Assembly: GCA_951406725.2 (NCBI GenBank)
Contig: OX597814.1
Span: 61,814,001 to 61,878,000 of the forward strand
Reading direction: 5' to 3'
From: Octopus vulgaris
Lineage: Eukaryota
DNA: 64,000 nucleotides
This document shows, one piece after another, positions 4,454 through 61,839 of this stretch. The position numbers and the translations under genes are program-made. The notes under the pieces were generated by a model, which saw only the letters and a program-made list of their open reading frames with translations, searched no databases and was not told the DNA's origin. Every line of letters starts with the position of its first letter. Within the stretch, counting starts at the first letter, position 1.

Positions 4454-7190
4454 ATGGGGAAGCTGCTAGATATAACTAGGAAATTAGATTCTGTTATCAG
4501 TAGGATATATACTAAAAATATAGGAGACACTAACTTCTTGATCTATGCGGGAGGGGTAGTAGTCACTAGAGGATTAGATATTCCACAAGGAAAGATTAGA
4601 AAAGAGCATATGTGGAAAAGGAAATTACAAAATAAAGTGAAGATTTTAAAATTAGATCTGAGTAGAATAGAAGCCTTGAAACTGAGCAAGTTAGGAAACA
4701 AAAGATTTAAATCTTCTCATGAGAAAAAATACTTAGTCAAAGAGAAATAATTTAGACAGTCATAGAAGAGTTGAAACTGCGTACCATTGCAGTAGCAAGT
4801 AAGCTTTCCAGATATGAGAAAAGAATAGATCAGTGTCAACAAAATAGATTATTTGAGACAGACCAGAGGAGGCGTTATAACCAAATATAAAGTGAAGAAG
4901 AAAGTACTGAAGATGAGAAACCTAATGCAGAAGAAGCAAGAAAGTTATGGTGTAATATTTGGAATAATGATAATGGAGATGCAATATGGTTAAAGAAAGT
5001 GAGGGGAAAGTAGTGAGTTAAAAGCAGCCAGATCTAAGACTAACTAGTGCATTAATAAGTAAAGCATTAGGAAAAATGCCGAACTGGAAGGTTCCAGGAC
5101 TAGATTTAGTTCAAAGATACTGGCTAAAGAAATTTAGTAGTTTATATGGGAGGCTAAGGGTTTGCGTTAATGGAGTAATAATACCAGATTGGATGACTAG
5201 AAGGAAAACTATACTCCTTATGAAAGACAAAAGCAAGGTAATACAGCTAGCAATTATAGACCATTCACTTGCTTACCATTCGTGCAGAAGCTGTTAACAG
5301 GAATGCTTTCAGAAAGCATTTACGAGTACCTCGACAACCAGAGTTTACTGCCAGAAGGACAGAAATGTTGCAGGAAGAAGGCTAGAGAAACGCATGATCT
5401 ATTATACATAGACGAAGCCGTTCTAAATGAAGAAAAATTAACAATAGCATATATAGATTATAAGAAAGCCTACGACATGATCCCACATTCATGGATAAGT
5501 GAATGTATGAGTATATTCAGTATTGCGGACGACATAAGAGAACTGATGAAGAAATGCAAAGTAGATCTCTACTCAGGTGAAACAGTCTTAGAGAAAATTA
5601 ATATCAAGAGAGTAATTTTCCAAGGAGACTCATTATCCCCTTTAATATTTGTCTTATATTTGATCGCCCTCAGTTTAGTAAGACATCAGTTTAGAAATAG
5701 CAAAGTAAAAATTAACCATTTGCTCTGCATAAATGATCTGAAGCTTTTTAGTAAGAATTAAAAAGAGATAGATATCTTAATACGGATTGTAAGACTCTTC
5801 AGCAATGATATAGGCATGGAATTTTGCATAGATAAGTGTGCAATATTAGTCATGAAAAGGGGACAGGCAGTCAATAGCGAAGGCATACAATTACCAGATG
5901 GCTAGACATTAAAATCATTGAAAAGAGGAGAGAGTTATCTAGGAGTATTAGAATCTGACAAAGTACTAACTATAGAAATGAAAACAAAAATTGAGAAGGA
6001 ATACATCAGAAAGGTGAGAAAGCTAACGAAATCAAAGCTAAATGATCCGAATCTAGTGAAGGCTGTAAATACTTGGGCAGTATCGTTACTTGGGTATTCA
6101 GCAGCTTTTGTAGATTGGACAAAATTTCATTAAACAAAGCTAGACAGAAGAAGTAGTAAGGAATTCAATATGAATGGAGAACTTCACCCAAGGGCAGGAG
6201 TAGCAAGATTATACTTACCTAAGAAGGAAGGTGGAAGAGGGTCAATATCAGTAGAAGACTGTGTGGAGTTCGCTAGAGTAGATATAGACTCCTATGTAGG
6301 TAACAGAGAAGTTTATTAAGAGCTGCTAGAATCATAGCAGGAAATAGGGAAACCAAAAAGCCAAATTAAATTAAAAACTAGAAAAAAAGAACAAAAGTTA
6401 TCTGACCGGCAAGAGAAAGCTTTGCATAGTAGATTCCCAAATATAGTTGCAGCAAATAGTAGTAGTGAGACATGATTATGGTTGCAGAAAGGAATGCTGA
6501 AAAGGGAGCAACACAAGATCAAGCATTAAGGATTAATTGGATACAAGCCAAAAAAGACAAAAACCAAGTAGATTCCCCATGAAGGCTATGCAAATCAAAG
6601 GAGGGAAAAGTGAATGTAGCATACTGGCACAGAAAGAATACATGAAAAGACATGGCAACCTAATGAGAGTAATCCACTGGGGGTTATGTAGAAAGCTAGG
6701 ATTTGATCATACTGATAAATAGCATGAATATGAACCTGGTAAAGAACTAGAAAGTAGGAAATATAAGATGTGGGACTTTAACATTCAGACTGACAGAGTA
6801 ATAGAAGCTAGAAGGCCTGATTTAATAGTTGTAGATAAAGAGAATAAAAAATGACCTATAATTGACTTTACAGTCCGAAATGAGAAAATTAATATGAGAG
6901 CTATAGAGAAAATAGCAAAGTACCAGGACTTAGCCATTGAATTATAAAGACTATGGAAATTGCAGGCAAAATGTATCCCAGTAGTTATAGGTGCATTAGA
7001 AACTACCTCTAAAGATTTGAACAAATGGATAGAGGAAATAGGCATAAAACCCAGTTTAGTACAGCTCCACAAAACAATGTTATTAGGGACAGCTAGGATA
7101 CTTAGGAAGGTTCTTGGCATCTAAGGTTACTTGTTGTATCCCGATATTAGGAATTTTTCTTTCCAACAATCTAATCTGTTATGAGCATAT
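4454..7190 (+). mobile_element. R4/Dong-clade non-LTR retrotransposon (RT + restriction-like endonuclease), decayed
   Basis: Broken frames with MPNWKVPGLD, IDYKKAYDMIPHSW, IFQGDSLSPL, INHLLCINDLKLF, WDFNIQTDRVIEARRPDL and KYQDLAIEL. Followed by a (GAT/AAT)n tract. Confidence 0.9.
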
Positions 7191-9529: not shown

Positions 9530-10288
9530 GTGGTAGTACCAACTGCAATACAGAAACGGATATTACATGAATTTCATAGTGGACACCCGGGGATGTCAAG
9601 AATGAAAACGTTGATGAGGAGTTATGTATATTGGCCGACAATGGACCGAGACATTGAGAATCTGGTAGGATCATGTGGAGGTTGTGCGCTAGCAGCCACG
9701 GCACCACCGGTGAAATATCAACCTTGGCCTGAGACTGATAGTCCGTGTCCAGTACATATAGACTATGCTGGCCCAGTGAATGGTGCCTACTACTTGATCA
9801 TTGTTGATAGCTTTACCAAGTGGCTGGAAGTATGTCCGTGCTGTCAATCTACCTCGAAGGCAACAATAAAGTTCCTGCACGAACTTTTTGCTCGATACTG
9901 TATTTTGGATACCATAGTATCAGACAATGGACCACAATTTATAGGGTTAGGGTTAGGGTTAGGGTTAGGGTTAGGATACGAATTCAAGAAATTCTGCAAA
10001 ATGCATACAATGAAGCACAAGTTTACCCCGCCCTATCACCTGAGGTTAAATGAGCAAGCAGAACGATTCATAGATACTGTCATGGGAGCGCTAAAAATAG
10101 GAAGGAACGAAGCGCTAGCTAAATTCTTAAGGGTGTACAGAATAACGCCCAATCCGAATATCTGTTCAGACAAGTCGCCTGCAGAGCTAATGTTCGCTCG
10201 AAATATTAATTCGATTTTCAACAAATTGTTGCCAAAGGAAAAAAACGTGTCGAGAAAATACAAAAAAAGAATTCAACTAAACATTTGA
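9530..10288 (+). pseudogene. Gypsy integrase (HHCC zinc finger + DDE core) remnant
   Basis: HSGHPGMSRMK...YVYWP...CGGC, VHIDYAGP, IIVDSFTKW, IVSDNGPQF, NEQAERF. Contains an in-frame telomeric-repeat insertion. Confidence 0.92.
9942..9975 (+). repeat. Interstitial telomeric repeat (TTAGGG)~5
   Basis: TAGGGTTAGGGTTAGGGTTAGGGTTAGGGTTAGG read directly. Confidence 0.95.
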
Positions 10289-15326: not shown

Positions 15327-16244
15327 ATTTCTATTTTCCTACACCAACTAATTTACAGTCCTGTACGTTTGCTTAGTATTTCTTCCATCACTACATTGGC
15401 AATTATGGGGAAGTCTTTGCTAATGAAGTCATAATAAGAATGAAACATATTTTCCTATACTTACTGAAATCATTCTAATGCTATTTACAATTTTTTTTTT
15501 TTTTTTTTTGCGGTGCAAAGGCAGCGAGCTGGCAGAATTGTTTGATCATCGGAAAATGAATTGCGCCTTTTATTCCGGTTCTTTAAGTTTTGAGTTCAAA
15601 TCCGTATATGGTCAACTTTGCCTACCACCCCCACAGGCGTAGATAAAATGAATTACCAGTCAAATACTGGATCAGATGGTATTATCAAATCCCTTCCCCT
15701 CAAAACTATTAGTTCTGTTCTTAAAATAGAAGCAATTATTTTTTTCACTGGATTATTATTTGTAATTAGCTTCTTAATGACCTATGCATTAAATAAGTCA
15801 ACATTAGCTAAATTAACATCTGTAGTAGTTTGTCTGTGAGTGTGAAAACATCATCTGCAGAATGTTGTAGGAAAGAATCGCAAGACGATTCTTCAAACCG
15901 AGCCATCTGACCGGAGACCGAGGAGTAGGTCAAGAACAAGGATGGTTGGATAACATCCAGTCTCAGCTGGTCTCTTATTTCTTCTTGGAATTCATCTGAA
16001 AGTCTAATGACGGTTCCTGCTGATAGGACCCAATGGAGGAGGTGCGTAAGGATTCAACACATCACAACCCTCCTAGGGATAATGGGAGGAGATGAATGAA
16101 TGAATGAAATTGTGTTTAATCCACTAGCTGGAGTGAAGAATAAAGAAAAATGTTTTTGGTCAAATTTTAAATTCAGACTATTAATTTGTAATTTTTAAAA
16201 AAGTATTACTATTTATGTAAATGACTATTTCTATTCTCTTTTAG

Positions 16245-16342
16245 CGTTTGCTTTCAAAGATTGTCTTCCAAATGGAACTTGGTTCCGTCACCCGATCTCC
16301 AACGTTTATTGGACCAATTATACTCCTTGTTTTAGAGATGTG
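16245..16342 (+). CDS. Class B1 GPCR (calcitonin/CGRP receptor-like), exon A: C-terminal part of the extracellular hormone-binding domain
   Basis: Pyrimidine tract + TTAG acceptor, GTAAGT donor. Translates (x)FAFKDCLPNGTWFRHPISNVYWTNYTPCFRDV, matching the C-x3-G-x-W-x2-HP-x5-W-x-NY-x2-C pattern of calcitonin-family receptor ectodomains. Ends in phase 0. Confidence 0.93.
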
Positions 16343-18904: not shown

Positions 18905-18999
18905 CACTTACCTGAAATTGTAGCGTCTGTCTTCATCTGGGGTCATGTGGTCTCCATTATAGCTCTTACACTTTCGATGGCGATCTTCAGCTACTTCAG
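18905..18999 (+). CDS. Class B1 GPCR exon B: stalk and TM1
   Basis: TTTTAG acceptor, GTTAGT donor. HLPEIVASVFIWGHVVSIIALTLSMAIFSYF has the class B TM1 G-x3-S motif. Phase 0 in and phase 2 out fit the neighbouring exons. Confidence 0.92.
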
Positions 19000-23565: not shown

Positions 23566-25897
23566 CATGTTTGACTTTTGCTTTATATTTGTACAAGTTG
23601 GCTCCAAGTCTCACCCAGAGACTTCAAGAGGCAACAGGTTGGAAGTTCGTATTGTTGTTATGCCTAGTGTGCCATATATTTGGTTTGTATTTAGTGTTGT
23701 ACTAGTGAATGCCTAAAAAAAAACGAAAGTCATGTTTCTTTTAAAACTTGAGGTTACATAGAAAGTATTTTGCGAAGTCATATGAGCAGTTCCCATGAGC
23801 ACTATCTTTTGAATTTCTGCCATTTTGGGGTTTCCTGGCATCTGAGTTAGGTAGCGATCAGCCCCTTTTGCTATCATTCCCTGAGCACCTATGACAACAG
23901 GTATTGTTTTAGTCTTCAGGTTCCACATTTTGCTGATTTCTATTTCAAGATCTTTATATTTGCTCAGTTTTTGGTAGGTCTTGACAGATACGTTTATATC
24001 GATTGGGACAGTCATATCAATGAGGAGGCATGTTCTTTGTTTGAAGTTTTTCAATATGATGTCTGGCCTATTTGCATCTATCTTTCTGTCAGTTTGAATG
24101 GGGAAGTTCCAGAGGAGTGAGATGTGGTCATTTTCAAGCACTGGAGGTGGTTTGTGTTCCCACTAGTTTTTTTCATGGGGCAAATCCAGGTTTTTGCAGA
24201 TTACCCAGTGAATATATTGTGCAGCTCTATCATGCCTGTTGAGATACTCTGTAGGCGCTAGAAGAATGCACTTGGAGACAACATGATCAATGGTTTCATT
24301 TTGTTGTTGACATACACGACATGTTGGGCTACTGCCGTTCTTTAATATGTTGGCCTGGTAGTTCCTTGTTGGTAGCCATTGATCTTGGGCTGCTATGATA
24401 AACCCTTCTGTTTCAGATTTTAAACCAGAGGCCATTAGCCATTGATGTGTCATGGCTTTGTCAACATCTGCATTATTCGCAGCTTTGGGTATTTGCCATA
24501 GAGAGGTTTTCCTTGCCATTTATCATTCAGTATATCCAAGGCAGCAGTTTTAGCACGGGTTTTCATGCGTTTAGCTTTTTCTGTGCTTGTTTCTTGTATG
24601 TCTAATTCCGAAATTTGTTGTATTCGGAATTCACTTAGATATTCCTTTGCCTGTTTTGTTACTGAGTATGATGCTTTCTTGTTTTCATGTTTTGAGATAA
24701 GTTTTAACATCCAGTCCTCAGAGTTTTTCAGGTAGGTGTCTAGGCCAATTGTAGCAATCTTCATTGTTATTGCCTGTTGTAGAAGTCCACGGCCTCCCTC
24801 TTTTCTTGGCAGATAAAGTCGTTCTATATATGCCTTAGGGTAGTGCATTCTATGCATTGTCAACAGTTTTCGTATTTTTCTGTCAAGATTACATATTTCA
24901 GTAATTGACCAGTTAACGATATTGAAACTGTAAGTCACGACTGATATGGCTAAAGCATTGATCGCTTCGATCCTGTTTCTCGCATTTAGCTCTGTCTTGA
25001 GTATTGGTCTTACTCTGCGATAACATTCTCTCCTGATCCTTTCCTTCATCACTGAATGCCTTATTCCGTCCCTTTCAATTACCCCTAGGTACTTGTAGCT
25101 CTCCGCTGGGTCTAATTCTTTTATGACATTCTGCTGGTCAAGGTTAACGTTAGATGTTTCTGTCATTTTTCCTTTGATAAAGGTAGCTTTTGCACATTTA
25201 TCGAGGCCAAATTGCATTCTGATGTCATCGCTGAATTGTTTAACAATCGTTTGTAAGCCCTTGAGTTGATGGTCATTTTTTGCAAAGAGCTTTAAATCAT
25301 CTATGTAAATGAGATGATTTATATTTTTATCAAACATTTTATATCCGTACTGCGCGTCATTGAGCAATTTTGAGAGAGGTATTAAGGCTAAACAAAAGAG
25401 GAGTGGTGATAGTGAGTCACCCTGGAAAATGCCACATGAAATTTTTGCATCACCTGCATTTAGCGATTCATTGTCACTGTTCAAATTTAGTGTGATTCTC
25501 CATGATCATACTTACAGACAAAAAGTTTCGCAGTGTAGGTGCTATTTTACACATTTCCAGGCATTTCTTAATCCAGCTATGTGGTAGGCTATCAAAAGCC
25601 TTTTTATAGTCTATCCAGGCTATCGACAAGTTTTTGTATCGTTTGTGACAATCTTCTTAGATCATCTTATTGATGAGTAGTTGATCTTTACAACCATAGG
25701 ATCCACGTTTACATCCTTTCTGTTCATTCGGGAATATGCTGCTGTCTGTTAAAAAACTATAGGTATATTCCGTCAGGACAGATTTTAGCGTTTTATACAT
25801 AGTTGTTAAGCAGGTTATAGGTCTATAGTTTTTTGGTTAATTTGTTTCTTCACTTTTTGGGAGCAGGATTGTTAACCCATTAACTAGCCAAGGAGGC
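23566..25897 (-). mobile_element. R4/Dong-clade LINE, best preserved copy (5'-truncated)
   Basis: ORFs 24450-25484 (GIFQGDSLSPLLF, INHLIYIDDLKLF), 24163-24519 (CRVC...H..SKC) and 23713-24141 (RPDII...IDM...KYKDL); few disablements; (TAA)n tail. Confidence 0.95.
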
Positions 25898-27605: not shown

Positions 27606-29326
<1,721 letters not shown>

Positions 29327-29834: not shown

Positions 29835-30623
29835 AACTGTATCGATTGATTCTCGTTGTGAAGAGTTGCTTTAAACTGCTGGTTCCATTCTTAAGAATAT
29901 GCATTTTCCGTCTTCCACTTGCTGTCTTTCACCATTTATCGATCGTCAGTAGATTTCTACCTTGAGAAATCAATAGGGAATTACATTGCTAGCAAGATAA
30001 ATTGCAGCTATACTATTAGAAATGTGTGATTGGATTGATGTGGAACGATTTAACAGTGCTCTGTGTCAACAATCCGTAGTGATTAACAGACTAATTTACG
30101 GCGCTTATATAAACATATTAAGTTTAGAGACTCACTAAACTTGTTTCTAGTTCATTTGTGTTCTATAGAGTGTTGACCTTATTGTAACATATTATAATGA
30201 AATCAATCGCTATTAAACAATCTCCTCTTCAAACACTGTGTGACATCTAATAAACAATTCAATAAATTTATAAAATGATGTACTTAGATTTTCGTCGTTT
30301 AGCTGCAGGTTAGCATGGATTATCTTATAATTTATATTTTACCGTTTATGTGTTTCAGTCCTCGGAGTGCGGCCATGCTACAGCACTTCCTTGTAGGTGT
30401 GCCAGGATGGGTCAAACGAATCGGCCCCAGTACTTACTTTGAAGTCTATCGCTCTCTTTCAATAAACTGCTAAGTTACGGGGCTGTAAACCAACCGATAC
30501 AGGTTGTCAAGCAGCAGTAGAGGACAAACGAAAGTGCAAAGACACATTCGCACAAATATACACACGCGCACGCACACGTATTCATACATATATAATACAT
30601 GCATACGTACATACGTATGTATA

Positions 30624-30692
<69 letters not shown>

Positions 30693-30855
30693 CATAAGGG
30701 ACGTTAGCCATCTGAATGTGGCTAGGGACAGGGCAGGGCGGTGGGGGTGTTACTGATGCATTTAGCCCCAGGCGATCATCAACGTCACCAGGAGGGCTGA
30801 CGCCATCATGGCGTCCTCTAGCCTGCAAAGGGAGATCATTCCCCGAAGAAGCGGA

Positions 30856-30908
30856 TGCCACATACGGACCTAGGTTTCAAGGTGTTTGCCTATTATCAAC
30901 GTATGGCA
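30856..30908 (-). ncRNA. Type I hammerhead ribozyme (U3-A8 core), minus-strand copy
   Basis: Reverse complement of 31231-31283. Confidence 0.8.
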
Positions 30909-31230
30909 GGCACCGCCCCTCGACGAACGACTCTGTGCAGGCTATATATAAAGATTTTCACAGTAAATACATTTACTGATGTAGAAAATCCGTTCGACAG
31001 CAATAATAATTCTCTAAGCGAGATATATCAGTAACACCCCCACCGCCCTGAACTGTCCCTATCCACATTCAGATGGCTAACGTCCCTTATTTTATGGAGC
31101 AGTTACTGTCTATATCTCGCTTAGAGAATTATTATTGCTGTCGAACGGATTTTCTACATCAGTAAATGTATTTACTGTGAAAATCTTTATATATAGCCTG
31201 CACAGAGAGTCGTTCGTCGAGGGGCGTGCC

Positions 31231-31283
31231 TGCCATACGTTGATAATAGGCAAACACCTTGAAACCTAGGTCCGTATGTGGCA
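31231..31283 (+). ncRNA. Type I hammerhead ribozyme (U3-A8 core variant)
   Basis: UGCCAUACG-UUGAUAA-U-AGG caaaca CCU-U-GAAA-CCUAGG-UC^CGUAUGUGGCA; stem I UGCCA.UACG/CGUA.UG.UGGCA; palindromic stem III. Predicted cut after 31272. Confidence 0.82.
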
Positions 31284-31492
31284 TCCGCTTCTTCGGGGAA
31301 TGATCTCCCTTTGCAGGCTAGAGGACGCCGTGATGGCGTCAGCCCTCCTGGTGACGTTGATGATCGCCTGGGGCTAAATGCATCAGTAACACCCCCACCG
31401 CCCTGCCCTGTCCCTAGCCACATTCAGATGGCTAACGTCCCTTATGTTATGGAGCAGTTACTGTCTATATCTCGCTTAGAGAATTATTATTG

Positions 31493-31526
<34 letters not shown>

Positions 31527-31668
31527 AATATAAGAGAGTGGTCACTATATTGATCACCCTAGCACCAGTTAATCCAAAAGGTTTCAACCACGAAAATACA
31601 TGCTTCCCATGAAAGCCAGTACGACTGTTAGCTCACACGGACAGGGCAAATAAAAAATAACAAAAATA

Positions 31669-31762
31669 CAGATTATTTTGGGACAATTGTTTCGCTATTA
31701 ATGAATTAAATGTAATATTACTTACAATAATCCATTTGTAGCTCTTCAGCCAAGACTATCTG
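31669..31762 (-). ncRNA. Type I hammerhead ribozyme, unit 1
   Basis: Minus strand CAGAU.AGUC.UUGG-CUGAAGA-GCUA[extended hairpin]UAGC-GAAA-CAAUUG-UC^CCAA.AAUA.AUCUG: intact core, bulged stem I, palindromic stem III. Confidence 0.9.
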
Positions 31763-32201
31763 GATGAAATCCACTCAATCACACGCCAGATTTTACCATA
31801 ACGATAAATACGCGTGCGGTTCAATTGATTACATCGGACGTTATAATTCAAATGCCCCAACCAACAGCGCGCCAAACTCTCACGGAAAACAAATACAGCA
31901 TTTAGAAATAAATGCAGCATAATTATAATTAATTAATAAGGGTGAGAGAATTAGATACTAATTTAATAGTATATTTATTCCACACCAAGTGGCCTAGTGC
32001 TACGAGAAACCTGGATTATTATAATATTTTATAACATATTATAATATTTTCACAAAATAAATATAAGAGAGTGGTCACTATATTGATCACCCTAGCACCA
32101 GTTAATCCAAAAGGTTTCAACCACGAAAATACATGCTTCCCATGAAAGCCAGTACGACTGTTAGCTCACACGGACAGGGCAAATAAAAAATAACAAAAAT
32201 A

Positions 32202-32295
32202 CAGATTATTTTGGGACAATTGTTTCGCTATTAATGAATTAAATGTAATATTACTTACAATAATCCATTTGTAGCTCTTCAGCCAAGACTATCTG
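32202..32295 (-). ncRNA. Type I hammerhead ribozyme, unit 2
   Basis: Same sequence as the unit 1 motif. Confidence 0.9.
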
Positions 32296-32734
32296 GATGA
32301 AATCCACTCAATCACACGCCAGATTTTACCATAACGATAAATACGCGTGCGGTTCAATTGATTACATCGGACGTTATAATTCAAATGCCCCAACCAACAG
32401 CGCGCCAAACTCTCACGGAAAACAAATACAGCATTTAGAAATAAATGCAGCATAATTATAATTAATTAATAAGGGTGAGAGAATTAGATACTAATTTAAT
32501 AGTATATTTATTCCACACCAAGTGGCCTAGTGCTACGAGAAACCTGGATTATTATAATATTTTATAACATATTATAATATTTTCACAAAATAAATATAAG
32601 AGAGTGGTCACTATATTGATCACCCTAGCACCAGTTAATCCAAAAGGTTTCAACCACGAAAATACATGCTTCCCATGAAAGCCAGTACGACTGTTAGCTC
32701 ACACGGACAGGGCAAATAAAAAATAACAAAAATA

Positions 32735-32828
32735 CAGATTATTTTGGGACAATTGTTTCGCTATTAATGAATTAAATGTAATATTACTTACAATAATCCA
32801 TTTGTAGCTCTTCAGCCAAGACTATCTG
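32735..32828 (-). ncRNA. Type I hammerhead ribozyme, unit 3
   Basis: Same sequence as the unit 1 motif. Confidence 0.9.
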
Positions 32829-33268
32829 GAGTGAAATCCACTCAATCACACGCCAGATTTTACCATAACGATAAATACGCGTGCGGTTCAATTGATTACA
32901 TCGGACGTTATAATTCAAATGCCCCAACCAACAGCGCGCCAAACTCTCACGGAAAACAAATACAGCATTTAGAAATAAATGCAGCATAATTATAATTAAT
33001 TAATAAGGGTGAGAGAATTAGATACTAATTTAATAGTATATTTATTCCACACCAAGTGGCCTAGTGCTACGAGAAACCTGGATTATTATAATATTTTATA
33101 ACATATTATAATATTTTCACAAAATAAATATAAGAGAGTGGTCACTATATTGATCACCCTAGCACCAGTTAATCCAAAAGGTTTCAACCACGAAAATACA
33201 TGCTTCCCATGAAAGCCAGTACGACTGTTAGCTCACACGGACAGGGCAAATAAAAAATAACAAAAATA

Positions 33269-33362
33269 CAGATTATTTTGGGACAATTGTTTCGCTATTA
33301 ATGAATTAAATGTAATATTACTTACAATAATCCATTTGTAGCTCTTCAGCCAAGACTATCTG
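33269..33362 (-). ncRNA. Type I hammerhead ribozyme, unit 4
   Basis: Same sequence as the unit 1 motif. Confidence 0.9.
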
Positions 33363-33461
33363 GATGAAATCCACTCAATCACACGCCAGATTTTACCATA
33401 ACGATAAATACGCGTGCGGTTCAATTGATTACATCGGACGTTATAATTAATTATATATATA

Positions 33462-33497
<36 letters not shown>

Positions 33498-33521
33498 ATA
33501 CATACATACATACATATGTAT

Positions 33522-33900
33522 AGGTGCAGGATTAGCTGTGTGGCAAGAAGCTTGCTTACGAACCACATGGTTCTGGGTTCAGTCCCACTGCGTGGCACCT
33601 TGAGCAAGTATATTCTACTATAACCTCGGACCGACCAAAACCTTGTCAGTGGATTTGGTAGATGGAAACTGAAAGAAGCCGTCGTATATGTATGTGTGTG
33701 TGTGTGTGTATTTGTGTCTCTGTGTTTGTCCCCCACTATCGCTTGATAATATTGGTGTGTTTACGTTCTCGTAACATCAGCTCTTCAGCAAAAGGGATCG
33801 ATAGAATAATTAGTAGACTTACAAAGAATAAGTCGATTTGTTCGATTAAAGGCGATGCTCCAGGATGGCCACAGTCAAATGACTGAAAAAAGCAAAAGAA
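33522..33900 (+). mobile_element. tRNA-derived SINE, family A
   Basis: Head AGGTGCAGGATTAGCTGTGTGG...GGTTCAGTCCC (A/B-box-like), internal (GT)n, tail AATGACTGAAA. Other copies or parts lie at 30340-30560(-), 33974-34100(-), 45594-46215 and 61303-61453(-). Confidence 0.85.
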
Positions 33901-36992: not shown

Positions 36993-38158
36993 TAGTAGGA
37001 TCTTTTCTATTCTGAAGCCAGTTTTTTCAAATTTTTCCTACTGAACCAAACAATTTGAAACTTCGTATACTGGTAGAATGTGTCAAAAGTAAACTTAATT
37101 GTAAACCAGAATGAAAACGGAATTGTAACTTCTAAGTTTAACGTTGTTTAATAATTAGAATTTTAACCAATGATATTCCGTCATTCGGCTTTATTTTATT
37201 TACTCCGTCTCGACCACCAATTTCGTGACGTATTAAACATCTTAAATGTAAACAAGTGTGTGTGAAGAGACAGAGAGAGTAATGTGTGAAAGAGAGAGAT
37301 AACTGAAATTTTTTACTCGGTGTATGTGTATATGTATGTCTGCATGTATGTGTGTGTGTATGTATGTGTAAGTATGTGTGTGTGTATGTATGTATGGCCG
37401 ATTCATCGTAATTACGATGAATCGGCCATACATACATAGATACATACACACACACACATACATGCAGACATACATATACACATACACCGAGTAAAAAATT
37501 TCAGTTATCTCTCTCTTTCACACATTACTCTCTCTGTCTCTTCACACACACTAACAGAAGCACTTCACTTACACAACATACTGTCTCCCACACCCCATCA
37601 AACACACACACACACACACATGTACATCAATGCTTCCCCTAGACGGTAACTTCAAAGACAAACTTCCCTCGTCATAAAATCGCTTCCTCTTAGTCTCTTT
37701 CGCTCTCATTACTTATGTAAAAAAATAAAAGTTTTTTACGGAAATCGACGGAAAACTTGTGCTACGACAAGAGAAACTTCGCCGAAATTTAATATTAAAA
37801 AAGCAAAGAGCTGGCAGAAACGTTAGCACGCCGGGCGAAATGCGTAGCCGTATTTCGTCTGCCGTTACGTTCTGTGTTTGTTTACAGTTTTCCGAACGTT
37901 AGTACGTCACAAAAGCGTTTTCTACGTCACACTAATAGAATGCAGTCAAGTTTTACACATGAAAACAAACAATCTGATTGGTTAAAATTCGCAGTTTTAA
38001 TCTACGATTAAAGTCATAAAATAGATTTTTCTCAAATAAACTAGTTCCAACCTGTGTCTTGTTTTGCTAGACTCTATCAGCATACGAAGTTTCAGATTAT
38101 TTAGTTAAGTAGAAAGATCTGTGGTCCTGGCTTCAGAATTGAAAAGATCCCATTAGTA
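36993..38158. mobile_element. Non-autonomous DNA element with about 25-bp terminal inverted repeats
   Basis: GGATCTTTTCTATTCTGAAGCCAG at about 36998 and CTGGCTTCAGAATTGAAAAGATCC at about 38127. Contains the large palindrome and a SINE head. Confidence 0.6.
37255..37552. repeat. Spacer-less palindrome, about 150-bp arms
   Basis: Centre ...GATTCATCGTAA|TTACGATGAATC... at 37411/37412; the arms match apart from a microsatellite-length difference. Confidence 0.93.
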
Positions 38159-45066: not shown

Positions 45067-45076
45067 CCTTTTCTAG

Positions 45077-45203
45077 TCAATTGAACTGTGCTCGAGTGAC
45101 CATCCATAAACACCTTTTCTTAACATACATCTTAAGTGGAAGTGTTTGGATCATTGAATTTGGTGCCATAGTTTCAAACGGTCCAGTTTTGTTTGAGAAT
45201 TCG
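45077..45203 (+). CDS. Class B1 GPCR exon C: ICL1, TM2, ECL1
   Basis: TTTCCTTTTCTAG acceptor, GTAAGT donor. (S)QLNCARVTIHKHLFLTYILSGSVWIIEFGAIVSNGPVLFENS contains the class B L-x-C-x-R-x2-IH-x-HLF signature. 127 nt, phase 2 in and phase 0 out. Confidence 0.95.
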
Positions 45204-56854: not shown

Positions 56855-57008
56855 TTCTGGTGCCGCTTGGTTCATGTGTTAACACAGTATATGACAACGT
56901 GTAATTACTACTGGATGTTCTGTGAAGGTCTCTTCATGAATGTAGTCATTATACAAACCTTCACAATGGAACACTATCTCTTAAAAGTCTGCTGTGTATT
57001 AGGATGGG
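56855..57008 (+). CDS. Class B1 GPCR exon D: TM3, ICL2, start of TM4
   Basis: TTTTGCAG acceptor, GTAAGC donor. FWCRLVHVLTQYMTTCNYYWMFCEGLFMNVVIIQTFTMEHYLLKVCCVLGW has the NY-x-WM-x-CEG TM3 signature and the TM4 GW. 154 nt, phase 0 in and phase 1 out. Confidence 0.96.
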
Positions 57009-57969
57009 GTAAGCTTTTTCATTCATTTCTCTTTGCTACTCTCAACAATTCTCCATCCATTCACCTAGAAATCATAAGCTTTGGTTTTGTTATGTCTGCT
57101 TGCTTGCTTGCTTGGTTGATTTAGTATCTTCTCTGGGGATACTACGAACACTGCCAAGTTTATTAAATATGCCATGTGTCAATTATCCTTAAAATGCAAT
57201 GCAATACAAATGCATCCCACCGTTTCTTTCAAACACTATTACTTATAACAATACAAAACACGTTTATATATTTACAACATACGTATAGAAGCAGCGGAAA
57301 TTTAGATATAGTGAAATGCCCTAATTGAATACGGATTTTGTCTGACGGCAGAATTGTTAGACTATCGGAGAAAATGCCTAAAGATATTTTTCCTGGTGAT
57401 AAACGTTCATATATAAACTACATACGTATAAAAGCATTTCATCCTCTTCAGAGAGAGAACATGGGTGATTCAGATATAAGGAAAAGAAGGAAAGAAAATG
57501 ATTGATCATGATAATCATGGAGTTGGGTTCTAAAGATTATAGCTTAAAGCAACGGAATTCATAACTATGGTAAAGGACATTATTAAATTCTGATCTACCT
57601 TCTTTCGTAGTTTCCTCTGGTTAGGTTAATAGTTTAATATGACGAAATACAGAAAGATATCTGAAGTATAAACACCATTTGAAAAAATTATCCTTGTACT
57701 GAAATGTGGGAAATTTGGATGGTAAACATCAGTGAATAGATAAGGGAAATTTTTCTCGTCCTTCGGTAAAATACTGTGTTGGCTTTGAAAACTATTTCGA
57801 GAAATTAATGTTATGTATTCTTTGTGGTAACAAGAAAAGAGAAAAATATATACGATTTAAAACATATGTCGTTTAAGTTTCCTATCCAATATGTTACCTT
57901 TGCAAGTAAATGGAGATTTTATTTTGCTTATTTTATCTAATTATCTATTCATTTATTTATTTTATCTAG

Positions 57970-58033
57970 TTGTACCTGTTTTGCCAGCATCGATATACGC
58001 AGTAGTTCGACATTTGTACGGAGATAACTCCAG
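57970..58033 (+). CDS. Class B1 GPCR exon E: rest of TM4, start of ECL2
   Basis: TTTATCTAG acceptor, GTAAAC donor. (V)VPVLPASIYAVVRHLYGDNS completes the GWxxP motif. 64 nt, phase 1 in and phase 2 out. Confidence 0.9.
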
Positions 58034-58557
58034 GTAAACTATTTCTTATTTGAGAATGTCAAGTTTCCCGTGACCGAAAGTTCCTGTTCAATATAACACA
58101 TGCGTGTAATTGTTGATAAATAAATAAATAAATAGCAAGTAACTTTCGACGGAAAAAAATATTTTTGTAGATAATCTGGAAATGTATGAATATGGACGTG
58201 GTAATCAGAAAATGTATTAATATGAATGCTTTTTTTTTTAAATGAAATATTCATATTATGAAACCACGATAAACATGTAATAATGGCTGCGAGTAAAAAC
58301 ATTTGCTAGAGAAAATATATCACAAAAAATTTCACAGAAGTTAATTATCTCGAGCGGTGGCTTCTAAGTACGCCGTAAGAGGTATTTCTACTTCTACGAT
58401 AGATTTCTTAAAGTCTAATATAAAGAATTAGAAAATCTATAATAATGTTTTAACATCTTAAAACCATGTTATTCATAACTCTATTATACATAAGTAAGAT
58501 TAATAAAACAAAATATTCTAATATTTTATTCTAAAATTTAAACTTTAAACATATAAT

Positions 58558-61536: not shown

Positions 61537-61839
61537 GGTAGTCTTACAGCTATTTCAGGGATATAAAAGATATCCCATCACAACAGACGATATGAGAGAG
61601 TTTCAATAGAAGGAAATAGTAAAGTTCATTATATAAAAAAGTTATTCCTGAAAGGGAGAGATACAGGAAGTATGAAGGGAAATATGAAAATAAAAATATA
61701 TGTTGGATACTTTCTCTATCTCTCCCTTCCAAAATAACTTCTTATATAATGAACTCTACTATTTCCTTCTACTGAGACTCTCATATCGTCTCTGATGATA
61801 GGATATTTTTTATATCCCTGAAACAGCTGTAAGACTACC
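61537..61839. mobile_element. Fold-back Penelope-pLTR-like element with an HHR
   Basis: Inverted arms at about 61537-61670 and 61708-61839. The right arm holds an intact HHR; the left arm has a decayed core. Confidence 0.8.
61788..61835 (+). ncRNA. Minimal type I hammerhead ribozyme
   Basis: GUCU-CUGAUGA-UAGGAUAU uuuuu AUAUCCCU-GAAA-CAGCUG-UA^AGAC: canonical core, palindromic CAGCUG stem III. Predicted cut after 61831. Confidence 0.85.

Follow-up and report, generated by a model that had tools for sequence, protein, structure and literature searches.

What kind of element carries a hammerhead motif with the core UUGAUAA on each DNA strand, how it reached its present site, and whether its ribozyme can act are the questions raised by a locus of Octopus vulgaris. 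The window, i.e., the whole stretch of 64,000 nucleotides analysed, is animal DNA with abundant microsatellites. Five exons on its plus strand match the UniRef entry 'Calcitonin gene-related peptide type 1 receptor-like, Octopus vulgaris' (one match for one candidate), with 100% identity in four exons and 96% in the fifth, whose sole mismatch is the first residue. The element, built of a 355-bp unit, sits in (TA)n within a 26-kb intron of this CGRP-receptor-like gene (Table 1). The region 30689–31493 is here taken, with a probability of roughly two in three, to be one copy of a multicopy, dimer-dependent non-LTR retrozyme inserted in (TA)n by a Penelope-like reverse transcriptase–endonuclease; its cleavage is a prediction from folding models.

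The same intron holds an inverted repeat at 37255–37552, with 126-nt arms 94% complementary and 46 nt apart, while three exact 26-bp tandem copies with CTGAAGA on the minus strand, not scored as a hammerhead by the scan described below, are found at 29032–29109. Pfam revealed two reverse transcriptase fragments and one LTR-type integrase fragment in the window, at 5201–5761 (plus), 24450–25505 (minus), and 9530–10288 (plus), none of them identified as Penelope-like, and no Penelope ORF was identified within the window.

Table 1. Coordinates of the element, its motifs, its neighbours, and the host gene in the window
Feature	Position	Strand	Remarks
Inverted copy of unit positions 31112–31450	30689–31027	-	339 nt, without the 43-nt tail; runs straight into (TA)n
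5'-truncated partial unit, pseudo-LTR-like	31027–31139	+	113 nt
Full 355-period non-coding unit	31140–31493	+	GC 0.49
Tail, direct copy only	31451–31493	+	43 nt
Inversion junction	31027–31035	.	CAGTAAC at 31029–35, complementary to GTTACTG at 31102–08 / 31457–63
Type I hammerhead motif, direct copy	31227–31283	+	U3-A8 core
Hammerhead motif of the inverted copy	30861–30905	-	U3 at 30899; sequence same as plus copy
533-bp retrozyme-like array, second and unrelated	31526–33447	-	3.6 units, identical but for one inserted base
Third hammerhead motif	61788–61835	+	CUGAUGA, extra U, 7-bp helix II with bulge, GAAA, palindrome ACAGCUGU, A17, 4-bp helix I
CGRP type 1 receptor-like exons	16244–16342, 18905–18997, 45075–45203, 56855–57007, 57969–58034	+
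Host intron, CGRP type 1 receptor-like gene (class B GPCR)	18998–45074	+	between exons 18905–18997 and 45075–45203
Left (TA)n target tract	30616–30691	.
Right (TA)n tract	31494–31524	.	common to the 355-unit element and the 533-bp array, tail to tail

Organization of the element

The element comprises a 1.32-unit tandem of a non-coding 355-bp unit and an adjoining 339-bp inverted copy, and the 355-bp period read in the earlier note is confirmed by the recurrence of 31027–31139 as 31382–31494. Both outer ends enter (TA)n. The two 339-nt arms (30689–31027 and 31112–31450) are one substitution and two small indels apart, and the partial and full units differ by four substitutions (31051, 31052, 31062, and 31091), all in the unpaired 66-nt spacer 31036–31101. 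The four spacer differences are all G:C to T:A transversions, none of them a listed family variant; they are a weak argument against copying from a single perfect circle, or else record damage to a loop that was single-stranded. The unit agrees with the profile of non-LTR retrozymes (a non-coding tandem of ca. 170–400 nt, with a G+C content below 50% and high self-pairing) in its length of 355, its G+C content of 0.49, and its strong predicted self-pairing (z of -3.77 for 31096–31450). No flanking LTR pair is evident around the element. The only frames overlapping it are stop-to-stop frames of 96–133 aa running into the TA repeats, and no ORF coding for the telomerase-like reverse transcriptase and GIY-YIG endonuclease of an autonomous Penelope-like element was found among them.

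A partial tandem, an adjacent inverted 5' copy, a tail at one end, and a (TA)n target, the pattern of Penelope-type insertions, are all present at 30689–31493, although the 43-nt tail is a little over the 30–40 bp given for Penelope tails, which counts against a Penelope-type reading. The inversion had been described as joined at a CAGTAAC shared by the two parts, suggesting a template switch of a reverse transcriptase. The heptamer is indeed common to both arms, but the two bases preceding it follow the direct copy; the crossover lies 1–2 nt upstream, with a perfect overlap there of ca. 1 nt and the 7-nt homology adjacent and imperfect. CAGTAAC and GTTACTG are partners in the fold predicted for the monomer, and a 7-mer with an inverted partner inside the unit occurs at 20 of the 355 unit positions. 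A junction made by reverse transcription, as proposed, is likely. It is very unlikely that the inversion arose instead by later DNA repair, by replication fold-back, or through an assembly error at a palindromic repeat: the inverted arm stops in (TA)n at 31450, where other copies end as well, it lacks precisely the tail and departs from the direct arm at sites of its own, and the whole is the textbook Penelope pattern. In keeping with such an origin, though, no strand-change joint is among those listed in the four runs examined (see below), the differences between the arms are mostly small indels, and the four substitutions are clustered in the spacer (Fisher P of 0.003 to 0.06, depending on the way of counting).

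The hammerhead motif and its folding

The core UUGAUAA noticed earlier is present on the plus strand, with U3 at 31240, A8 at 31245, and A9 at 31246, and a second time on the minus strand. Stems I and II and the palindrome were said to be intact, which is true of helix I and of the palindrome, but helix II opens with a mismatch, U10.1(31247)-U11.1(31260), followed by three Watson-Crick pairs (31248–50/31257–59). In the plus-strand motif, helix I has 6 bp (31234–39/31273–78) and four distal pairs (31227–30/31280–83) separated by loop 1, composed of UGC (31231–33) and U31279. Loop 2, CAAACA, has five of the six letters of the Rfam RF00163 consensus loop CAAAUA; GAAA lies at 31261–64 and the palindrome ACCTAGGT at 31264–71, with an A31264-U31271 pair and C17 at 31272, after which the cut is predicted from the sequence layout. 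Helix III is predicted to have 2 bp in the motif alone and 8 bp in a dimer. The core, the Watson-Crick 3-8 pair, the three helices, and the open helix I are those of a type I hammerhead, the 3-8 pair being U-A, not C-G. The joint presence of U3-A8 and U-U puts two weakening features in one motif, which counts against the retrozyme reading.

A relaxed scan of both strands returned six motifs: the U3-A8 one once per strand and four canonical ones in the neighbouring 533-bp array; none of 30 shuffled windows held a C3-G8 or U3-A8 motif plus a palindrome of at least 6. In Rfam, no hammerhead match was obtained for the whole window at the gathering score, nor for 31210–31300 (91 bases) with RF00163 (Hammerhead_1) even at E ≤ 10, and the 34 matches of an E-value search of 30600–33600 comprised 0 hammerheads and were nearly all on microsatellites. 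The expectation that consensus searches would miss this family is thus borne out, the canonical motif of the neighbouring array itself being found below the gathering score (E 5.6e-05, 26.6 bits against 34).

Fold energies of the monomer and the dimer were computed on the 57-nt segment only. In silico, this monomer adopts the form of an inactive rod (-14.8 kcal/mol, against -8.4 for the active fold), with a probability of 0.00 for helices II and III, while two strands folded without constraint reach their minimum as the active double hammerhead (-34.0 kcal/mol vs 2 x -14.8). The hammerhead of the 355-bp unit is predicted by these models to self-cleave only as a dimer. The double-stranded RNA of about 340 bp foreseen for the arms finds its counterpart in 337 arm–arm pairs of the whole-locus fold, in which 45 of the 45 motif bases are paired with the left arm. 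The hammerhead does occur on both strands, as had been claimed, but only once on each, so that the locus makes no cleavable dimer and the copy cannot release a monomer; moreover, on each strand the antisense arm is transcribed ahead of the motif. For these two reasons the copy at 30689–31493 is predicted to be catalytically silent, and in the pre-mRNA its motif would be buried in the arm duplex.

Copies of the unit in other sequencing runs

The 355-unit stretch occurs in 20 of the 24 runs listed, which come from 11 studies and four organisms. Four of the runs (organisms A, C, D, and A) were compared with 31140–31494 using all contigs (likeness 80, share 3), and 1050, 438, 285, and 66 matching contigs were found, respectively. 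The unit, in line with its description as a multicopy hammerhead-bearing element, is a dispersed multicopy family, with 66–1050 contigs per run in all four. None of the listed runs holding the stretch is an RNA run; X15 is marked 'RNA?' by guess only and is not taken as evidence of expression.

The substitutions listed in the four runs fill 39 rows at 37 sites. Compensatory variants restore Watson-Crick pairing at four helix pairs of the independently predicted fold, 31196/31318, 31198/31316, 31236/31276, and 31327/31337; in permutations, four such pairs among 37 variable sites have a P of 0.0024 for the whole unit and of 0.0059 for 31180–31350. Variant linkage could be deduced for one pair only, as a contig ca. 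90% alike keeps U3 and A8 and carries both T31236C and A31276G (placed on the same contig because their depths are equal); the remaining covariation is at the site level, and the pair 31327/31337 is itself a CpG, which counts against covariation there. A one-base insertion occurs in loop 2 among the family contigs, A31268G leaves the palindrome paired via G-U (-9.8 vs -11.4 kcal/mol), and G31232A turns loop 1 from UGC to UAC. G31232A/C31282T was dropped as a compensatory pair because 31232 lies in loop 1.

In none of the four runs does a substitution reach at least 3% at 31237–31267 or 31269–31275, and none is listed at U3 or A8, diverged cores being clipped from short contigs in both cases. 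Under random placement, 12 variant-free core sites have a P of about 0.10, not significant alone, and the invariance of the core is only suggestive of constraint. The double change had been read as a sign of selection for function: selection on RNA structure is upheld by the compensatory helix variants, but there is no covariation at 3-8 and no C3-G8 copy of the family among the variants listed in the four runs. One X15 contig combines U3 with C7-G8 and G10.1, an unlinked state (U3-G8). T7-A8 could have arisen by decay of the C7-G8 CpG, the state carried by that one contig.

This contig is also in favor of a different history, in which the mobile family is the same but its ribozyme has lost all or nearly all activity, C3U and G8A (the latter by CpG decay) having arisen separately in a founder and hitchhiked, since Penelope-type insertion needs no cleavage. 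The modest P of about 0.10 for the core, the folding of the monomer as an inactive rod, and, in X1, a depth over the ribozyme ca. 100-fold below that of the 3' part agree with it, as does the finding that hammerhead mutants leave the in vitro insertion of an anole element unreduced (PMC11167929). A dead ribozyme is nevertheless unlikely, as the two changes together restore exactly the needed 3-8 pair, helix I and the flanking helices carry compensatory variants, and the palindrome, both loops, and the dimer fold are retained.

The tandem joint 31494→31141 is seen in two of the four runs, and tail letters stand ahead of 31141 in all four. At such joints, away from this locus, units follow one another directly; a contig reaching across two motifs is absent. 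Among the loose ends listed, one in X1 (6 contigs) has its break at the 31450 end, beyond which AT-rich letters follow, and others have different upstream letters joined at 31341–31348. In X1 the summed depth of the 3' part is some 100 times that of the ribozyme, and this high 3' depth together with the foreign joins at 31341–31348 indicates that other elements, or truncated ones, have a 3' module in common with the unit. The module, 31344–31493, far deeper than the ribozyme part, is joined to other upstream hairpins in the listed loose ends and is possibly a recognition module common to several families. Its depth and its other upstream partners would suit a stretch that is no stand-alone retrozyme but just the pseudo-LTR (5'-truncated end) of an autonomous Penelope-like element; the insertion pattern identical to that of Penelope-like elements and the occurrence of U3-A8 in Penelope pseudo-LTRs would suit it too. 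Such an identity is quite unlikely in view of the head-to-tail joints at the 355 period, present at this locus and in two of the four runs, of a hammerhead layout that is canonical, not minimal (a 6-bp helix I with loop 1 and a short helix II), and of overlapping frames of just 96–133 aa from stop to stop that enter the TA repeats.

Pattern scans for relatives gave 0 matches in viral sequences and 0 in prokaryote genomes; in metagenomes they gave eight loci, all attributable to chance, with no likeness beyond the pattern of 24–27 nt.

Neighbouring hammerhead elements

Across one (TA)n tract, which the element had been correctly said to share with a 533-bp array, the array faces the 355-unit element tail to tail. 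Each of its units carries a canonical C3-G8 hammerhead (C3 at 31749, 32282, 32815, and 33349; palindrome ACAATTGT), and the four motifs have the same sense and an unusually long helix II insert, with 48 nt between the core and GAAA. The 533-bp unit exceeds the 170–400 nt range reported for retrozymes. As its copies are identical but for one base, the array is young, and it is able in principle to release monomers. No homology of the two units was detected (best local score 22, AT-rich), and a TA target common to both is the best explanation for their lying side by side. The third motif, at 61788–61835, for which there is no Rfam hammerhead match, is intronic and sense to the receptor gene and resembles a minimal Penelope-type motif.

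Proposed origin of the insertion

The retrozyme reading implies the following course of events, of which the first step, the existence of head-to-tail units in the 355-unit family, is seen directly. In multimeric transcripts two motifs would join through the ACCUAGGU palindrome to form a double hammerhead cut after C17, with U3-A8 substituting for C3-G8 at some loss of rate, and the monomers may circularize. A Penelope-like protein would nick (TA)n, and the cDNA would start internally, at 31450 or 31493, i.e., 178 or 221 nt downstream of the cut site, the use of two sites yielding the 43-nt tail. With starts lying that far past the cut site, the ends of the element would not be set by the ribozyme. 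The cDNA would have run 1.32 units along a template that was either circular or uncut. Pairing of CAGTAAC with GTTACTG would have given rise to the inverted arm, whether one cDNA folded back and primed itself or two cDNAs, one primed from each target strand, annealed; the sequence fits either route. Twin priming of the L1 type inverts without duplicating and was set aside as the source of the inverted arm, which duplicates the direct copy.

A broader version of this reading is tentative, at somewhat short of even odds: an octopus-wide retrozyme family with a fixed, doubly weakened hammerhead (U3-A8 and U10.1-U11.1) acting as an obligate-dimer switch and carrying the complete Penelope insertion signature, the inverted arm silencing intronic ribozymes. 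If it is true, the two internal starts, the tail, the inverted arm formed at stem homology, and the TA target constitute anatomical evidence for Penelope-like insertion of retrozymes.

Comparison with known systems

A retrozyme copy with an inverted arm, a tail, and a TA target offers a countable genomic test of the link to Penelope, and the natural motif combining U3-A8 with U-U would be useful for biochemistry, with the canonical 533-bp neighbour as a control. As far as the searches reach, the retrozyme family is new to octopus, and it is likely to be a new family of a known class of parasites, the retrozymes. No single feature is new, the variant core and the inverted structure each having a precedent. 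A paper in RNA Biology on dimeric hammerhead variants of Penelope-like elements may describe similar variants. No literature report of the 355-unit family in octopus was found by title and abstract; the supplements of PMC4209133 and PMC7229834, in which further motifs are listed, could include cephalopods.

The core is not novel: U3-A8 has been known from nature since 2011 (Perreault et al. 2011, PMC3088659), covarying in several natural hammerheads and active in vitro, and U10.1-U11.1 is natural as well, so that both variants of the octopus motif are known. The part of that paper at hand does not place the two together in a single motif or assign them to a family of retrozymes, as is seen in octopus. 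Ca. 1,300 minimal motifs with U3-A8 occur in Penelope-type elements of Schistosoma (Cercyon), with low activity and a need for dimers (Cervera & de la Pena 2014, PMC4209133). These pseudo-LTR hammerheads have U3-A8, the palindromic 15-16 region, and the dimer requirement in common with the octopus motif, the dimer need being predicted for the latter, and they also form opposite-strand pairs 100–700 bp apart, a range that includes the spacing of 341 bp found here. They are minimal, with a long helix II (7–8 bp), a short helix I, and G10.1-C11.1, whereas the octopus motif has a canonical helix I with loop 1 and a 3-bp helix II with U-U and belongs to a short non-coding unit.

Animal non-LTR retrozymes, for which a Penelope-like partner has been proposed, include mussel elements of 350–390 bp and the axolotl Rtz_353 with HHR_Amex2 (Cervera & de la Pena 2020, PMC7229834). 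They and the octopus unit are non-coding tandems of 170–400 nt with a G+C content below 50% and strong self-pairing, and their canonical type I hammerheads have a 2-bp helix III and a palindromic tetraloop. The hammerhead HHR_Amex2 of the 353-nt axolotl retrozyme shares with the octopus motif the U-U at the base of helix II and the dependence on dimers, in which it is efficient (in octopus this dependence is predicted). The octopus unit differs in its U3-A8 core; the available part of PMC7229834 makes no mention of an inverted 5' copy, a tail, or a (TA)n target, and the word octopus has 0 occurrences there.

The inverted copy belongs to the standard pattern of Penelope-like insertions, described as a partial tandem with an inverted 5' copy, an optional tail of 30–40 bp, and a (TA)n target, for which self-priming has been proposed (PMC8557442, PMC3846280). 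The anole Penelope-like protein nicks AT-rich DNA, extends both target strands without a need for ribozyme cleavage, and starts cDNA at two internal sites bounding the tail (PMC11167929). The octopus element thus resembles the endonuclease-bearing Penelope-like elements (Penelope/Poseidon, Neptune, and Naiad; PMC8557442, PMC3846280, PMC11167929) in its partial tandem, its adjacent inverted 5'-truncated copy, its optional tail at one end, its AT-rich or (TA)n target, and its internal ends downstream of the cut site; it differs from them in being without an RT/GIY-YIG frame and in the 43-nt length of its tail.

In the giant squid genome, 235 Rfam hammerhead hits only were given (PMC6962438), and the 355-unit family shows that Rfam-type searches undercount cephalopod hammerheads. 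Retrozymes have been proposed to be non-autonomous Penelope derivatives (Li, Clavereau & Pollet 2026, bioRxiv 10.64898/2026.07.22.740005). The octopus copy, which is intronic, is not an 'active' retrozyme in the sense of that work, where two consecutive motifs are called for. Its authors argue from co-occurrence and from the phylogeny of pseudo-LTRs, mainly in vertebrates, whereas the evidence from octopus is the anatomy of the insertion.
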